Part shown: piece after piece, positions 3,937-8,530 of the stretch
Layout of the letters: every line of letters starts with the position of its first letter
Numbering within the stretch: position 1 is the stretch's first letter
Virus record (IMG/VR): IMGVR_UViG_2597490260_000009
Length of the DNA: 11,848 bases
Source of the DNA: a virus
Lineage: Duplodnaviria; Heunggongvirae; Uroviricota; Caudoviricetes
Direction: 5' to 3' (one strand)
Program-made: the position numbers and the translations under genes
The notes under the pieces: model-generated
What the model was told of the DNA's origin: nothing
The model's database searches: none
The model's input: only the letters and a program-made list of their open reading frames with translations

Positions 3937-4311
3937 ATGCTCATAGATTTGGTTTTACCTTACCCGCCGACGGTGAACACTTACTGGCGACGCCGTGGCA
4001 GCACATATTTTATCTCGGAGGAGGGAAAGCGTTATCGCCGGGCTGTGGCGCTTATTGTTCGCCAGCAGCGGCTGAAATTAAGCCTGTCCGGAAGGCTGGC
4101 GATAAAGGTGATTGCAGAGCCACCGGATAAGCGTCGTCGCGACCTGGACAATATCCTGAAAGCACCGCTGGATGCGCTGACGCATGCGGGAGTGTTAATG
4201 GACGATGAGCAGTTTGATGAAATCAATATCGTTCGTGGTCAGCCAGTATCTGGTGGACGTATGGGGGTGAAGATTTACCCCATAATGCATGAAGAGCAGG
4301 TCAAAAAATGA
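3937..4311 (+). CDS. rusA: Holliday junction resolvase RusA
   Basis: 124 aa; PDKRRRDLDNILKAPLDALTHAGVLMDDEQ matches the RusA catalytic core (PDRRRRDLDN...DAL...G..DD). SD AAGAGG upstream. Stop overlaps the next start (ATGA). Confidence 0.85.
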   Translation: MLIDLVLPYPPTVNTYWRRRGSTYFISEEGKRYRRAVALIVRQQRLKLSLSGRLAIKVIAEPPDKRRRDLDNILKAPLDALTHAGVLMDDEQFDEINIVRGQPVSGGRMGVKIYPIMHEEQVKK

Positions 4312-5127
4312 AACTGGAAGATTTACCGAAATACTACTCCCCAAAATCCCCTGGCCTGACCGATGCATCGGCCTCAACGTCAAAAGATGCGCTGAGTATC
4401 ACTGATGTGATGGCCGCGCAGGGCATGACACAGAATCGGGCTGAGATGGGGTTTTCTGCGTTCCTGGGGAAAATGGGCATCAGTATGAATGACAGGGCGC
4501 GGGCAACAGAATTACTGGCAGATTATGCACTCAGTCGGTGCGATCGTGTGGCGGCGTTGAGAAAACTTCCGGCAGAAATAAAACCGGTAGTGATGCGCAT
4601 TGGCTTCGTATGCGTTTGAAGATTATGCCCGTAGCGCGGCGAGCAAAAAACAGTGCCCTTGCTGTCACGGAAAAAAATTTATTGAAAGCGAGGTTTTTAC
4701 AAACAAGATCCAGTATCCGGATGGTAAGCCACCAGTGTGGGCAAAGTGCACAAAAGGCGTGTATCCGTCTTACTGGGAAGAATGGAAAAAAGTCAGGGAG
4801 GTGGTAAAAGTTGCCTGTCCGGAGTGTGGCGGAAAGGGTGAGGTTTCCACCGCCTGTAAGGATTGCCGTGGGCGTGGTGTCGCCATTCATCGTGAAGAGT
4901 CGGTAAAACGTGGTATGCCTGTTATCAGAGATTGCCAGCGTTGTGGTGGTCGTGGCTGTGAAAGGCTGCCATCAACGGAGGCATTTAATGCCATATGCAA
5001 AGTGACGAGTGCTATCACGCTTGATACGTGGAAAAAATCAGTGAAACGCTTTTACGATACGTTGGTGGTTCGGTTTGACATTGAAGAGGCATGGGCGGAG
5101 CGGCAGTTAAAGAGGGTAACGCGATAG
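4308..5127 (+). pseudogene. Q: Lambda-family late antiterminator Q (QuuQ-like, with an enlarged zinc-finger region), split by a frameshift near nt 4594-4602
   Basis: ORF 4308-4619 aligns to the lambda Q N-terminus (SPKSP, TDVMAA.GM) and ORF 4600-5127 in the +1 frame aligns to the C-terminus (YA.EDYARSAA, CxxC pairs, LYDTLVV). The second frame has a TGA at 4591-4593, so the shift lies within about 10 nt. No homopolymer at the site. Confidence 0.65.
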
Positions 5128-5132
5128 TGTTG

Positions 5133-5181
5133 TTGATTTTTCCCGAATCTGTGGTAAATTTGCTCTAACGATGGGCGTTTT
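5133..5181 (+). promoter_or_regulatory. Late promoter pR' with promoter-proximal pause element (lambda-like)
   Basis: -35 TTGATT (5133-5138), 16-nt spacer, extended -10 TGgTAAATT (5152-5160), then TTGCTCTAACGATGGG, which closely resembles the lambda pR' core GGTAAATTTGACTCAACGATGGG as I recall it. Sits immediately downstream of Q. Confidence 0.6.
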
Positions 5182-5209: not shown

Positions 5210-5231
5210 CCCGCCGCCTGGCGGGTTTTTT
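5210..5231 (+). terminator. tR'-like intrinsic terminator about 65 nt downstream of the pR' start
   Basis: CCCGCC-gcct-GGCGGG hairpin followed by TTTTTT (5226-5231). Confidence 0.65.
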
Positions 5232-5699: not shown

Positions 5700-6824
5700 A
5701 TGCTTAATACTGTAAAAATATCCAGTTGTGAGTTAATCAACGCCGACTGCCTGGAATTTATCCGGTCGTTACCCGAAAATTCTGTTGACCTGATAGTCAC
5801 GGACCCGCCGTACTTTAAAGTGAAGCCTGAGGGCTGGGATAACCAGTGGAAGGGCGACGATGATTACCTGAAGTGGCTGGACCAGTGTCTGGCGCAGTTC
5901 TGGCGGGTGCTGAAACCTGCCGGAAGTCTTTACCTGTTCTGTGGTCATCGCCTGGCATCTGATATCGAAATCATGATGCGTGAACGCTTCAGTGTGCTGA
6001 ACCATATTATCTGGGCGAAGCCGTCCGGACGCTGGAACGGATGCAACAAGGAAAGCCTGCGGGCGTATTTCCCCGCCACAGAGCGCATTCTGTTCGCGGA
6101 ACATTATCAGGGGCCGTATCGTCCGAAAGATGCCGGGTATGCGGCGAAGGGCAGTGCACTGAAACAGCATGTGATGGCCCCGCTGATTTCTTACTTTCGT
6201 GATGCGCGCGCGGCCCTGGGGATAACGGCAAAACAGATTGCAGATGCCACAGGAAAGAAAAACATGGTGTCGCACTGGTTCAGTGCCAGTCAGTGGCAGC
6301 TACCGAATGAAAGCGATTATCTGAAATTACAGGCGCTGTTTGCCCGGGTGGCAGAAGAGAAGCATCGGCGTGGTGAACTGGAAAAGCTCCACCACCAGCT
6401 GGTGGATACGTATACCTCACTGAACCGGCAGTATGCGGAGCTGCTGAGTGAATATAAACATCTGCGGCGGTATTTTGGCGTGACGGTGCAGGTGCCGTAT
6501 ACCGATGTGTGGACGCATAAACCGGTGCAGTTCTATCCCGGNNNNNNNNNNNNNNNNNNNNNNNNNNNNNNNNNNNNNNNNNNNNNNNNNNNNNNNNNNN
6601 NNNNNNNNNNNNNNNNNNNNNNNNNNNNNNNNNNNCCGGCAGAAATGCTGCAGCAGATAATCAGCGCAAGTAGCCGTCCTGGTGATCTGGTTGCGGATTT
6701 TTTCATGGGGTCGGGTTCAACGGTAAAAGCGGCGATGGCACTGGGGCGTCGTGCGATTGGTGTTGAGCTGGAGACCGGACGTTTTGAGCAGACAGTCAGG
6801 GAAGTTCAGGATTTAATCGTTTGA
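5700..6824 (+). CDS. Orphan beta-class DNA amino-methyltransferase (probable N6-adenine); internal N-masked run
   Basis: Motif IV DPPY (LIVTDPPYF) near the N-terminus precedes motif I FxGxG (DLVADFFMGSGST) near the C-terminus, which is the beta-class order. No restriction endonuclease gene adjacent. Reading frame is continuous across the N run at 6542-6635. Confidence 0.85.
   Translation: MLNTVKISSCELINADCLEFIRSLPENSVDLIVTDPPYFKVKPEGWDNQWKGDDDYLKWLDQCLAQFWRVLKPAGSLYLFCGHRLASDIEIMMRERFSVLNHIIWAKPSGRWNGCNKESLRAYFPATERILFAEHYQGPYRPKDAGYAAKGSALKQHVMAPLISYFRDARAALGITAKQIADATGKKNMVSHWFSASQWQLPNESDYLKLQALFARVAEEKHRRGELEKLHHQLVDTYTSLNRQYAELLSEYKHLRRYFGVTVQVPYTDVWTHKPVQFYPXXXXXXXXXXXXXXXXXXXXXXXXXXXXXXXXPAEMLQQIISASSRPGDLVADFFMGSGSTVKAAMALGRRAIGVELETGRFEQTVREVQDLIV
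6542..6635. other. Run of 94 N (masked or unresolved sequence) inside the methyltransferase gene
   Basis: Direct observation. The flanking coding frame is preserved across it. Confidence 1.
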
Positions 6825-6835
6825 AACGGATGAGA

Positions 6836-6864
6836 TTGCAGAATTAATTACGCACCATTATTAT
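6836..6864 (+). promoter_or_regulatory. Sigma70-type promoter for the tRNA cluster
   Basis: -35 TTGCAG (6836-6841), 17-nt spacer, -10 TATTAT (6859-6864), 9 nt before the first tRNA. Confidence 0.5.
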
Positions 6865-6873
6865 TCTGCTCCC

Positions 6874-6949
6874 GGCCCTTTAGCTCAGTGGTGAGAGCGA
6901 GCGACTCATAATCGCCAGGTCGCTGGTTCAAATCCAGCAAGGGCCACCA
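6874..6949 (+). tRNA. ileZ: tRNA with CAU anticodon, tRNA-Ile2 (lysidine) type
   Basis: Manual cloverleaf: acceptor GGCCCTT/AAGGGCC, D-arm GCTC/GAGC, anticodon loop CTCATAA, T-arm GCTGG-TTCAAAT-CCAGC, discriminator A, CCA encoded. Closely resembles E. coli tRNA-Ile2 (ileX). Gene name is by analogy to the ileZ-argN-argO cluster of Stx phages. Confidence 0.8.
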
Positions 6950-6956
6950 TCACATA

Positions 6957-7033
6957 CCGCCATTAGCTCATCAGGAAAGAGCGCCAGCCTTCGAAGCTGG
7001 TTGCGCGGAGTTCGGGTCCCCGAAGGCGGTCCA
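6957..7033 (+). tRNA. argN: tRNA-Arg-like (anticodon UCG by manual fold); possibly degenerate
   Basis: Anticodon stem CCAGC/GCTGG with loop CTTCGAA. Acceptor stem has one A-A mismatch, T-loop is TTCGGGT (G where A58 is expected), and the T-stem has a mismatch. Name by analogy only. Confidence 0.55.
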
Positions 7034-7046
7034 TTATCTGTATCCT

Positions 7047-7123
7047 GCGTTGTTAGCTCAGCCGGACAGAGCAATTGCCTTCTAAGCAATCGGTCACTGG
7101 TTCGAATCCAGTACAACGCGCCA
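7047..7123 (+). tRNA. argO: tRNA-Arg (anticodon UCU, reads AGA)
   Basis: Acceptor GCGTTGT/ACAACGC, D-arm GCTC/GAGC, anticodon stem ATTGC/GCAAT with loop CTTCTAA, T-arm ACTGG-TTCGAAT-CCAGT, discriminator G, CCA encoded. Confidence 0.85.
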
Positions 7124-7138
7124 CACTTATTTTCCCTG

Positions 7139-7162
7139 GCTCGCTTTTGCGGGCTTTTTTTT
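7139..7162 (+). terminator. Intrinsic terminator after the tRNA cluster
   Basis: GCTCGC-tttt-GCGGGC hairpin (one G-U pair) followed by 8 T (7155-7162). Confidence 0.55.
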
Positions 7163-7383
7163 AAATGTCTCACAATTCAGGCGGTTGACTGTTGTCTGGT
7201 TTGCGGGGAGTTTGTTAAAAGAAACTGGCATGGTGAATCCCCCTGTGCGGAGGGGCAATCAGCGAGTAGGTATATGGGATAATCGCGGATTCAGGTGCTG
7301 GTACTGAATTCACCGGGAGGCACCCGGCACCATGCAATGGCACATAGCGCCACTCTCCAGCCCCTCTCCGGAGGGGCTTTTCT
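7161..7383 (+). repeat. Structured repeat unit A (candidate small-RNA gene)
   Basis: Collinear with unit B at a +468 offset: TTAAATG...CTCACAATTCAG, TTGACT (7185-7190), TTTGTTAAAA, GCATGGTGAATCCCCCTGTGCGGAGGGGC, CACCGGGAGGCACCCGGCACCATG, and terminator GCCCCTC-tccg-GAGGGGC + TTTTCT (7360-7383). The middle segment differs between units. Confidence 0.5.
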
Positions 7384-7572
7384 GTGCCGGATACATCACA
7401 GTTTCTGGAACCTTAGGTACTACAGTATCAGTCAGGGTGCTATATTTTCAGATGTGATGAAAGCCTGTCAGCAGGCAGGGCGTATCGGAAATGACCCAGT
7501 AGAGAAAACGTTGACTCAGATACCGGTGCTGAGTTACCGGGAAACCGGCATCACATGACCGCTATCCTTCCA

Positions 7573-7599
7573 GGCCCATCCGCTCCGGTGGGCCTTTTT
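7573..7599 (+). terminator. Intrinsic terminator in the spacer between repeat units
   Basis: GGCCCA-tccgctccgg-TGGGCC followed by TTTTT. A TTGACT -35-like box lies upstream at 7511-7516. Confidence 0.5.
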
Positions 7600-7621
7600 A
7601 CTGCAGAAAACAGGTTCCCCG

Positions 7622-7870
7622 TTAAATGCTATGTTGCTCACAATTCAGTAAGTTGACAGTTGCCTGTCAGACTGGGCATTTGTTAAAAAAATTTCGCATG
7701 GTGAATCCCCCTGAGCGGAGGGGCGACTGGTGACGGTATAATCTCTGATTATCAAAACGAGAATGACGCGGGTTTAGTGGCACCGGGCTGAACTCACCGG
7801 GAGGCACCCGGCACCATGTGCATGATGATACAGATACGCGGCTTTAGCCCCTCTCCGGAGGGGTTTTCTT
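7622..7870 (+). repeat. Structured repeat unit B (candidate small-RNA gene)
   Basis: Same conserved blocks as unit A: CTCACAATTCAG (7637-7648), TTGACA (7653-7658), TTTGTTAAAA, GCATGGTGAATCCCCCTGAGCGGAGGGGC, CACCGGGAGGCACCCGGCACCATG, and terminator CCCCTC-tccg-GAGGGG + TTTTCTT (7847-7870). Confidence 0.5.
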
Positions 7871-7877
7871 GTGGGCA

Positions 7878-7905
7878 AAAAAAGCCCGCGCTGGGAGACG
7901 CGGGC
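7878..7905 (-). terminator. Minus-strand intrinsic terminator
   Basis: On the minus strand: GCCCGCG-tctcccag-CGCGGGC followed by TTTTTTT (plus-strand A run 7877-7883). Confidence 0.5.
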
Positions 7906-8098
7906 GGCAAGGAATAAACAATAAAACGTGAAGTAATATTTCAGCTGGCGAATAATACCCCATAGTAATCACTCTGCGCAACTGCGCGGTCTTTTTCGAA
8001 TTGCGGGCTGTCGTCTCTCTTCTGCCATTGTCCTGTAACTTCCGGACTTCAGCCCGCTCCTTATTTTACTCACAATATTATCCCGGCCGGGAGGATTC

Positions 8099-8326
8099 AT
8101 GGCATTTAAACACTATGACGTGGTCAGGGCGGTATCGCCGTCAGACCTTGCGAAACGACTGACACAAAAACTGAAGGAGGGCTGGCAGCCGTTTGGTAGT
8201 CCGGTGGCCATAACCCCTTATACCCTGATGCAGGCGATTGCAGCAGAAGGTGATGTGGTGGTCAGTGGTGCAACTGAGCCGGATTGGTACTACGTCATCG
8301 TACTGGCCCGGCATTCCAGGCCATAA
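8099..8326 (+). CDS. Small phage protein (75 aa), DUF1737-like
   Basis: Strong SD GGGAGGA at 8089-8095. Sequence MAFKHYDVVRAVSPSDL...EGWQPFGSPVA matches my memory of the small DUF1737 family found upstream of lysis genes; family assignment not verified. Confidence 0.6.
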   Translation: MAFKHYDVVRAVSPSDLAKRLTQKLKEGWQPFGSPVAITPYTLMQAIAAEGDVVVSGATEPDWYYVIVLARHSRP

Positions 8327-8530
8327 AAGACAGTCTGGCAGTGGGACTAAATGCACTGACGCTGATGGATATTACCAAAAATGTAACGTATGGCGTTGAG
8401 ATAGAAAGTCTGGCGCTGGAGATAAATGCACCGGCATCATCATAAAAAGTGAGCCAGTCAAATGGAAGGTATCGTTAAACTCACCGGTAGTGTCAGTGGG
8501 TCGTCTGAGACGCTTGCATGAGTTATCAGA

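Follow-up and report, generated by a model that had tools for sequence, protein, structure and literature searches.

Introduction

Small RNAs of the STnc100 family (Rfam RF02076) include EcOnc05 and EcOnc27 of Escherichia coli O157. EcOnc05 is an Hfq-crosslinked RNA of about 222 nucleotides (nt) on Northern blots, and EcOnc27 is listed at about 235 and 247 nt, with the 247-nt form recorded as 'destabilised' (Tree et al. 2014), an entry that we read as a loss of stability without Hfq. In strain EDL933, RNA sequencing (RNA-seq) reads were reported for 11 annotated STnc100 copies, one of which, STnc100_4, was also Northern-positive (PMC5331693). One STnc100 copy lies 75 nt downstream of stx2B, where it overlaps both the Hfq-bound EcOnc27/sRNA103 and sequence variants associated with haemolytic uraemic syndrome (HUS) (PMC12370729, PMC12711010), the link between HUS and these variants adjoining stx2 being a statistical one (PMC12711010). 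A 2026 preprint relates STnc100 to PasD of enteropathogenic E. coli (EPEC) (10.64898/2026.05.13.724894); PasD1 and PasD2 depend on Hfq for their stability, and their chimeras from RIL-seq, in which interacting RNAs are ligated and sequenced, map to a linker carrying the seed UGUGAG. The subject of the present work is a cluster of repeat units of the STnc100 type in an 11,848-nt stretch of DNA, IMG/VR virus record IMGVR_UViG_2597490260_000009, which is referred to throughout as the window.

The window represents the late region of a lambdoid prophage of E. coli. An initial annotation, made from the sequence alone, had placed two terminator-ended structured repeat units between its tRNA and lysis genes and proposed them as candidate prophage small-RNA genes. 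Our conclusion, to which a probability of roughly 80% is attached, is that the region consists of three tandem STnc100 small-RNA genes, each with its own terminator, in the late-operon "moron" slot, which is preceded by the antiterminator gene Q, the PR'-tR' elements and the tRNA genes and followed by the lysis cassette. The small-RNA reading was therefore correct but already known and, as STnc100 was described years ago, amounts to recognition and not discovery. The points that are new are modest, and comprise a pseudoknot, a third member that scores below the family threshold and a group of relatives linked to the porin gene kdgM.

Results

Two clear STnc100 members and a probable third

Comparison of the window with Rfam using cmscan, for which the gathering score of RF02076 is 47 bits, returned matches of 136.3 bits for unit 1 (7199-7389) and 161 bits for unit 3 (7667-7876), the two E-values (6e-37 and 1e-30) being far beyond chance. 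Unit 2, occupying the spacer between them (7428-7601), matched at 30.1 bits (E = 0.002), which is below the gathering score, so that by the score criterion alone it is not an RF02076 member. The repeat relationship between units 1 and 3 was confirmed, whereas the count of two units was not, as the spacer is itself a divergent copy. Elements shared by units 1 and 3 were found as described in the initial annotation, namely CTCACAATTCAG, TTGACT/TTGACA, TTTGTTAAAA, the CCCCU...AGGGG hairpin, CTGAAYTCACCGGGAGGCACCCGGCACCATG and a GC-rich terminator. The offset between the two units, however, is not fixed at +468 as had been claimed, because unit 3 has 16 additional nt in its middle; a repeat finder placed an 88-nt block of the 5' half (80% identity) at +468, the 31-nt H3/P1 block CTGAAYTCACCGGGAGGCACCCGGCACCATG (97% identity) at +484 and the terminators at +487.

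To relate the units to detected RNAs, the Northern probes and the clusters from crosslinking and analysis of cDNA (CRAC) given in the supplement of Tree et al. 2014 were mapped onto the genome of E. coli O157 strain Sakai. The EcOnc05 probe and cluster mapped to a prophage Sp4 locus showing no difference from unit 1 over the stretch that runs from the CTCACAATTCAG box as far as the terminator stem; the Hfq cluster covers the linker. Both loci occupy the same slot (after ileZ-argN-argO and before DUF1737 and the lysis genes) and have the same convergent partner RNA, but the window holds three tandem copies where the Sp4 locus has one. In unit 3, a 5' part like that of EcOnc27 is joined to a different middle section, linker and terminator. 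EcOnc04 and EcOnc06 were identified as further STnc100 copies in the Sakai genome. In prophage Sp5 the order is tRNAs, stx2AB, STnc100/EcOnc27 (207.7 bits), convergent AsxR (88 bits) and a DUF1737 gene, an architecture shared by the window except that the latter is without stx and has three RNA units. The position of stx2AB in Sp5 agrees with the earlier suggestion that this slot is used by stx or csp morons, as does, in a further locus (L013), an open reading frame (ORF) that lies between Q and the RNA and was judged to be cspA-like on inspection of its translation by eye.

A predicted pseudoknotted four-way junction supported by covariation

The RNA is predicted to fold into a four-way junction closed by helix P1 and containing H1, H2 and H3, followed by a variable single-stranded linker and a Rho-independent terminator (Table 1). 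All helices of the RF02076 consensus (P1, the CCCCU/AGGGG hairpin, H2, and the CCGGG-AGGCA-CCCGG hairpin abutting the 3' strand of P1) were present in the minimum-free-energy (MFE) folds of units 1 and 3, whose cores both fold as the four-way junction (z = -2.0 and z = -1.95, respectively). The MFE fold of unit 2 contained all four of these helices with different sequences. The long-range pairing between the 5' and 3' blocks GCAUGGUG and CACCAUGC that had been suggested corresponds to P1, and is predicted in all three units.

Homologues were collected in two scans. An exact 22-mer from the H3/P1 block yielded 110 stretches from species-representative genomes of many Enterobacteriaceae genera, and the 5' motif retrieved at least 120 viral contigs; tandem copies were common in both sets. 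Covariation was examined across 111 representatives of <88% identity (MAFFT alignment A2), in which P1 was found to covary. Its second extension pair was G-C in 70 sequences, A-U in 35 and G-U in 3, and was unpaired in 3. All 10 of 10 variants of the CACC strand of P1 were G-U compatible, which identifies the + strand as the RNA. Over the whole structure 83.6% of cells were paired, against 78.8% in shuffles (0 of 500 reached the observed value) and 40-49% when partners were slid. The H2 sequences folded better with their own strands (-10.8 kcal/mol) than as chimeras (-7.3 kcal/mol; p = 4e-18). Covariation thus supports P1 and H2 at the level of sequence comparison, while H1 and H3 are nearly invariant and so provide no covariation evidence, the invariance of H3 being partly inflated by the 22-mer with which the genome loci were collected.

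In addition to these helices, the strand immediately 3' of H1 was found to be complementary to the loop of H2, forming a pseudoknot. Examples of the paired strands are AUCAGC/GCUGGU, CUGGUG/CACCGG, CUAGAC/GUCUAG, CCAGUC/GACUGG and GCUGA/UCAGC, together with UAUCGG/CCGGUG in unit 2 and AAUGAUC/GAUCAUU in PasD. Pairing with the sequence's own partner was stronger (-10.0 kcal/mol) than with partners from other sequences (-7.9 kcal/mol; p = 3.5e-15). Column-based counts in the MAFFT alignment gave only 55-58% pairing for the pseudoknot and upper H2 because loop lengths vary, and the tests of own against foreign partners were relied on instead. The RF02076 consensus-structure line as printed by cmscan shows nested pairs only and no pseudoknot.

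Protein coding was ruled out as the source of conservation. The lengths of the core modulo 3 were spread evenly (38/37/35), and no frame was open in most copies. The short ORFs within the units were not conserved, in agreement with the initial annotation, which had named a conserved protein frame in place of hairpins in homologous regions as the finding that would speak against it. A partial pseudo "hypothetical protein" annotated by PGAP/RefSeq in strain UTI89 (UTI89_RS29460, minus strand, 7218-7343, antisense to the unit 1 core) is very probably a spurious coding-sequence call.

Outside the core, the same linker-terminator cassettes were seen by eye in alignment A2 with different cores, which suggests that these cassettes are exchanged between copies, and that a constant scaffold is combined with exchangeable seeds. 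A similarity between H1 and the terminator was noted in E. coli copies and is not common to other family members. PasD1 and PasD2 of EPEC strain E2348/69 (EcOnc13 in enterohaemorrhagic E. coli, EHEC) resemble the window units in lying between Q and a holin gene, in keeping P1, H1, H2 and the pseudoknot, in having a TAAAAA -10 box 7 nt before the G of GCAUGGUG and a linker followed by a terminator, and in their dependence on Hfq. They differ in being without H3 and the 5' extension, and score 37.7 bits against RF02076. Their linker seed UGUGAG is found in none of the window units. The first ~28 positions of the RF02076 consensus cover promoter DNA of PasD-type copies.

Unit 2 as a divergent member

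On the basis of its modelled fold, unit 2 is a divergent STnc100 member and not a degenerate remnant. It forms the same four-way junction as units 1 and 3 (z = -3.5), with 0 of 200 shuffles folding as well, and its helix sequences differ from theirs throughout (P1, AUGUGAUG/CAUCACAU; H1, GCCUG-UCAG-CAGGC; H2, UGACUCAG/CUGAGUUA; H3, CCGG-GAAA-CCGG). Its extended -10 motif TGcTATATT ends 9 nt before GATGAA, which occupies the position of the family GGTGAA, and the mode of this spacing in the family is 8-9 nt. The spacer had been described as a divergent TTGACT-plus-terminator arrangement; the terminator belongs to the third unit, but the TTGACT (7511-7516) is the 5' arm of its H2.

Unit 2 is present, unannotated, in 672 of 5426 complete E. 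coli genomes (12%), in which two alleles could be distinguished, one with at least 99% identity in 344 records and the other with about 90.5% identity in most of the 322 records of the 90-95% band. Between the alleles, the H1 hairpin and terminator stem differ by compensatory replacement, the promoter motif, H2, H3 and linker are identical, and the sequence upstream of the promoter motif diverges. At the one second-allele locus examined (L235), unit 2 was again flanked by two STnc100 copies. A side-by-side reading, made without an alignment, ruled out unit 2 as an allele of PasD, no similarity being seen beyond the common fold.

Promoters and 5' ends

Among 75 distinct upstream regions of the family, the best sigma-70 match ended 7-11 nt before the GGTGAAT of the core in 34, with a peak at 8 nt, and many of these promoters, across genera, were near-consensus (TTGACx-17/18-TAAATT). 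At two loci (L079 and L007) the order is Q, PR'/tR', promoter, RNA, terminator and holin gene, an arrangement which, together with the sigma-70 matches across genera, indicates that the family consists of autonomous genes. RpoD signal has been reported at Salmonella STnc100 promoters by chromatin immunoprecipitation with exonuclease treatment (ChIP-exo; PMC10794520). As, furthermore, unit 1 begins right after the terminator of the tRNA operon, processing from read-through transcripts, which had been offered as an alternative, is not needed.

Three promoter candidates were considered for units 1 and 3. The published RNA-seq start of PasD1 is the G of GCAUGGUG, 7 nt after its TAAAAA box, which has TTGACT 18 nt upstream. 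Units 1 and 3 have a homologous TTTGT-TAAAAR box with TTGTCT or TTGCCT at 18 nt, and would by this promoter start at G7228 and G7696. The second candidate start lies near the CTCACAATTCAG box, which is preceded by a -10-like hexamer (TTAAAT in unit 1, TGcTATGTT in unit 3); RNAs of about 210 and 229 nt would result. The Northern size of the Sakai RNA identical to unit 1 (~222 nt) places the 5' end of unit 1 near 7162-7174. Of 30 distinct upstream regions from E. coli-type copies, 27 have the start of the CTCACAATTCAG box 63 nt ahead of GGTGAAT. The Hfq cluster of EcOnc27 sets in about 40 nt upstream of P1, and as the Hfq CRAC cluster at the Sp5 homologue (L112 2912-2991) starts within TTGACA, that stretch must be transcribed there. 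Both starts may be used in units 1 and 3.

The third candidate, in which TTGACT/TTGACA had been proposed as a -35 at 17-nt spacing from GAGTTT/GCATTT, is the least likely. Although it ranked top for unit 1 with a simple position weight matrix (8.8 bits), no more than 1-2 of the 6 positions of its -10 match the consensus, 5 of 15 E. coli-type variants have another sequence in place of TTGAC, and the Sp5 Hfq cluster starts inside TTGACA; TTGACT/TTGACA is probably not a -35 hexamer.

The 5' extension conserved in units 1 and 3 (~55 nt) contains an A-rich stretch. A search for structure within it (a hairpin CAGRC...GYCUG with TTGAC in the loop) gave -1.06 kcal/mol with RNAalifold and no compensatory pair. 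CTCACA occurs three times on the + strand of the window (7169, 7637 and 8069), each time as CTCACAAT and preceded by a -10-like hexamer (TTAAAT, TATGTT and TATTTT, respectively); two of these copies are at units 1 and 3, and the start codon of DUF1737 follows the third after 30 nt. The targets of PasD (seed UGUGAG) likewise have CUCACA as their common motif. The recurrence of CTCACAAT could reflect a shared promoter/start module or cross-talk between small RNAs. In the Sp5 homologue, the TTTGTTAAAAAAATTTC box of STnc100/EcOnc27 (L112 2937-2951) contains the positions, +90 and +103 after stx2B, of the published HUS-associated variants. This box could be a proximal -10/start region or an A-rich Hfq site, and the variants could alter the amount or stability of the RNA.

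A convergent RNA on the minus strand

Tail-to-tail with unit 3, the terminator scan placed a minus-strand terminator of eight pairs followed by TTTTTTT. The Northern probe for EcOnc08 matched the + strand at 7951-7985 with few mismatches, as judged by eye. EcOnc08/21/42 is the convergent minus-strand RNA in Sakai (Northern size ~271 nt), and the same convergent arrangement is found in Sp4. By its sequence, the window RNA resembles the EcOnc08/21/42 type. AsxR/AgvB (RF02703, RF02702) is likewise convergent and directly 3' of STnc100 in Sp5, with the minus-strand terminator of the window in the same place, but neither family matched anywhere in the window at E <= 1, the positive control being AsxR in Sp5. 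No Rfam family was assigned to the convergent RNA, for which only a weak match to OmrA-B (25 bits) was obtained. It possibly extends to ~8070-8150; a candidate promoter on the minus strand is TTGCGC-18-TATTAT (~7990-7955).

Genomic setting and distribution

The sequence from 6860 to 8100 was 100% identical to that of type strain ATCC 11775, UTI89 and other B2 strains, and none of the three RNA units is labelled in the RefSeq annotation of UTI89. Features of the window are collected in Table 1 in the order of the genes. ARAGORN found only the three tRNAs in the window and no tRNA-like gene within the units.

Table 1. Positions of the RNA units, their parts and the surrounding genes in the window
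Feature	Strand	Position	Details
hok/sok locus		2106-2520	type I toxin-antitoxin; span includes the isrK-like match
DUF968 gene			
RusA gene			
Q gene		4308-5127	antiterminator (PF03589)
PR'-like promoter		5133-5175	TTGATT-16-TAAATT, then AACGATGGG
Terminator tR'		5210-5231	
65-aa ORF			
DNA methylase gene			
tRNA-Ile(CAU), tRNA-Arg, tRNA-Arg		6874-7123	
Unit 1, 5' extension	+	7161-7227	TTAAAT 7161-7166; CTCACAATTCAG box 7169-7180; TTGACT 7185-7190; TTGTCT 7192-7197; TTTGT-TAAAAG 7211-7221
Unit 1, core	+	7228-7335	P1 7228-7235/7328-7335; H1 7240-7244/7251-7255; pseudoknot 7258-7263 with 7297-7302; H2 7287-7294/7304-7311; H3 7313-7317/7323-7327
Unit 1, linker	+	7336-7358	variable, C/U-rich; candidate seed
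Unit 1, intrinsic terminator	+	7359-7383	stem 7359-7378; U tract to 7383 (terminator scan)
Unit 2, promoter candidate	+	7438-7451	extended -10 TGcTATATT 7438-7446
Unit 2, core	+	7452-7556	P1 7452-7459/7549-7556; H1 7463-7467/7472-7476; pseudoknot 7483-7488 with 7523-7528; H2 7512-7519/7529-7536 (holds TTGACT); H3 7537-7540/7545-7548, GAAA loop
Unit 2, linker	+	7557-7571	GACCGCUAUCCUUCC; C/U-rich
Unit 2, terminator	+	7572-7600	stem 7572-7595; U tract to 7600; 9 pairs then TTTTT (terminator scan)
Unit 3, 5' extension	+	7622-7695	TTAAAT 7622-7627; TGcTATGTT 7627-7635; CTCACAATTCAG box 7637-7648; TTGACA 7653-7658; TTGCCT 7660-7665; TTTGT-TAAAAA 7679-7689
Unit 3, core	+	7696-7819	P1 7696-7703/7812-7819; H1 7708-7712/7719-7723; pseudoknot 7727-7732 with 7781-7786; H2 7770-7777/7788-7795; H3 7797-7801/7807-7811
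Unit 3, linker	+	7820-7845	
Unit 3, intrinsic terminator	+	7846-~7870	stem 7846-7865; U tract to ~7870 (terminator scan)
Convergent small RNA	-	7877-7985	body to at least 7985; terminator 7905-7884, U tract to 7877
DUF1737 gene		8099-8445 (with direct repeat)	truncated
Holin gene			
DUF1327 gene			
Lysozyme gene			
Rz gene			

Directly 3' of Q is a PR'-like promoter, followed by the AACGATGGG element and the terminator tR'. The promoter and the AACGATGGG pause element resemble those of lambda PR'. A late-leader RNA comparable to StxS or 6S, and only about 65 nt long, is predicted from these elements. The window units would be like lambda 6S RNA and StxS in being short constitutive late-region RNAs with an intrinsic terminator overridden by Q, but as PR'-tR' of the window adjoins Q, some 2 kb upstream, the units lie inside the late operon and are genes separate from the late leader. 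The possibility that the units themselves represent the late promoter-leader was ruled out by this location of PR'/tR', which is likewise directly after Q in L079 and L007.

Several further observations were made on the neighbouring genes. Relative to the intact gene of UTI89 (273 amino acids, aa), Q is split by a 2-nt deletion (TA) at ~4600, possibly a sequencing error; the prophage may consequently be unable to antiterminate late transcription, the small-RNA units being nonetheless intact. The hok/sok locus matched Rfam sok at 113 bits, and hokD is annotated in UTI89; the locus is followed by a sub-threshold isrK-like match (2439-2520; 27.8 bits against a gathering score of 50). A run of 113 N within the methylase gene (6523-6635) stands for only ~38 bases by UTI89 coordinate arithmetic, and the length of the methylase ORF (374 aa instead of 349 aa) is therefore a masking artefact. 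The DUF1737 gene encodes 75 aa, whereas ECs_1088 of Sakai is a fusion of >600 aa whose C-terminal part is of the esterase type, and it is marked as a pseudogene in UTI89; after it comes a 29-nt direct repeat (8328-8356 / 8403-8431, 79% identical).

Among copies on viral contigs, lysis genes were found within 4 kb downstream in 76 of 131 and Q upstream in 67 of 131, and among copies in species-representative genomes lysis genes were downstream in 27 of 86. The gene downstream of phage copies varies (holin, DUF1737 or tRNA, or a convergent small RNA in between).

Discussion

If the three units are small-RNA genes, each would be transcribed in the lysogen from its own sigma-70 promoter and would stop at its own terminator. 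Hfq would bind at the A-rich stretch and at the U-tailed terminator, features that are present in the sequence, the binding itself being taken from homologues (CRAC of EcOnc05 and EcOnc27, and PasD). By analogy with PasD, the variable linker would serve as a base-pairing seed on host or prophage mRNAs, and the constant scaffold would give stability or a platform for protein binding. During lytic growth, Q-modified RNA polymerase would read through all three terminators, which in the lysogen would, as a by-product, insulate the lysis genes from upstream transcription.

A number of points weigh against this interpretation. These exact RNAs are not known to have a target or phenotype, and the placing of the seed in the linker is extrapolated from PasD. 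In units 1 and 3 each of the candidate -10 hexamers is weak, and the evidence on the start is divided, with the Northern sizes and the EcOnc27 Hfq cluster favouring a start near the CTCACAATTCAG box and the PasD RNA-seq start and family-wide promoter position favouring one at P1. The Q frameshift means that lytic-state behaviour cannot be assumed for this strain. A pseudoknotted junction with invariant loops exceeds what a typical Hfq-dependent small RNA needs, and suggests a further function. Finally, 21 of the 86 species-representative copies are situated just upstream of kdgM. These form a chromosomal subfamily in Klebsiella, Kosakonia, Enterobacter and Raoultella, in which kdgM is followed by a gene for a periplasmic pectate lyase, the core is followed by a hairpin that, by eye, is without a clear U tract, and the porin start codon comes 75-200 nt further on; such copies look more like a cis-acting leader. 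Loci of this type include L034 (1841-2065), L006, L020, L029, L043 and others. A conserved box, CTCAAAACATCATTTCAnnTTGTGTAAAAGT, is present ~75-100 nt before their core, and L034 has a LuxR-type regulator gene upstream on the opposite strand.

The kdgM-linked copies are the main reason for keeping a cis-acting or scaffold-centred function in view. It could accordingly be argued that the core is itself the functional part, either as a domain that binds a ligand or protein or as a leader acting in cis (riboswitch-like, decoy or tRNA-like), with the short terminated RNA of the lysogen as only its "off" product. In favour of this, the multi-helix junction is closed, contains a pseudoknot and runs into a terminator, H1, H3 and the loops are nearly invariant across genera without covariation, and a holin gene directly follows many of the phage copies. 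We nevertheless consider this explanation unlikely, as conservation does not extend to the linker and terminator, no antiterminator common to the copies is evident, the downstream genes differ among phage copies, and tandem copies are each separately terminated. PasD, moreover, is abundant, depends on Hfq and has many RIL-seq partners despite having no H3, no tRNA-like gene was found by ARAGORN, and the invariance of H3 is inflated by the 22-mer collection. An extended form of this idea, to which we likewise give only a small chance, is that the STnc100 core is a pseudoknotted four-way-junction domain recognising a specific protein or small molecule, which serves as the leader of the kdgM/pectate-lyase operon in Klebsiella-group genera and was captured by phages with exchangeable seed-terminator cassettes.

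Explanations that dispense with a functional RNA core fare less well. The units might chiefly be DNA/RNA terminator modules that in the lysogen shield the lysis genes from transcription starting at tRNA and moron promoters, with no role of the RNAs in trans. Within 750 nt directly upstream of the lysis cassette the + strand does have three strong intrinsic terminators and the minus strand one, 16 terminator-like sites were scored in 4 kb where 3.9 were expected, and the location between PR'/morons and lysis genes is conserved; a terminator, however, needs about 30 nt, which leaves a covarying scaffold of 105-125 nt, dedicated promoters and abundant Hfq binding unexplained, and the kdgM-linked copies have no lysis genes to protect. 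This account is very improbable. Least credible of all is that the conserved blocks are recombination linkers acting at the DNA level, or short protein-coding genes. The blocks do flank variable segments, the linker-terminator cassettes do recur with different cores, and a partial minus-strand protein has been annotated by PGAP, but the compensatory and G-U-only substitutions fit the RNA of the + strand specifically, the indels are not multiples of three, most copies have no open frame, and discrete RNAs have been detected experimentally for homologues. Tandem, separately terminated STnc100 small-RNA genes are therefore preferred.

The finding carries little weight as a discovery, given that Rfam has listed the family for years and that homologues were detected earlier in EHEC, EPEC and Salmonella. 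Should the core prove to be a recognition domain, the tandem units would be sensors or decoys besides base-pairing RNAs, and unit 2 would be a variant with altered specificity. For uropathogenic and type-strain E. coli, the analysis means that at least three unlabelled STnc100-family genes are present, together with a convergent fourth. The family is abundant on Hfq in EHEC, and the pseudoknot, the constant scaffold with its exchangeable linker, the sub-threshold third member and the kdgM-linked relatives provide handles on its function.

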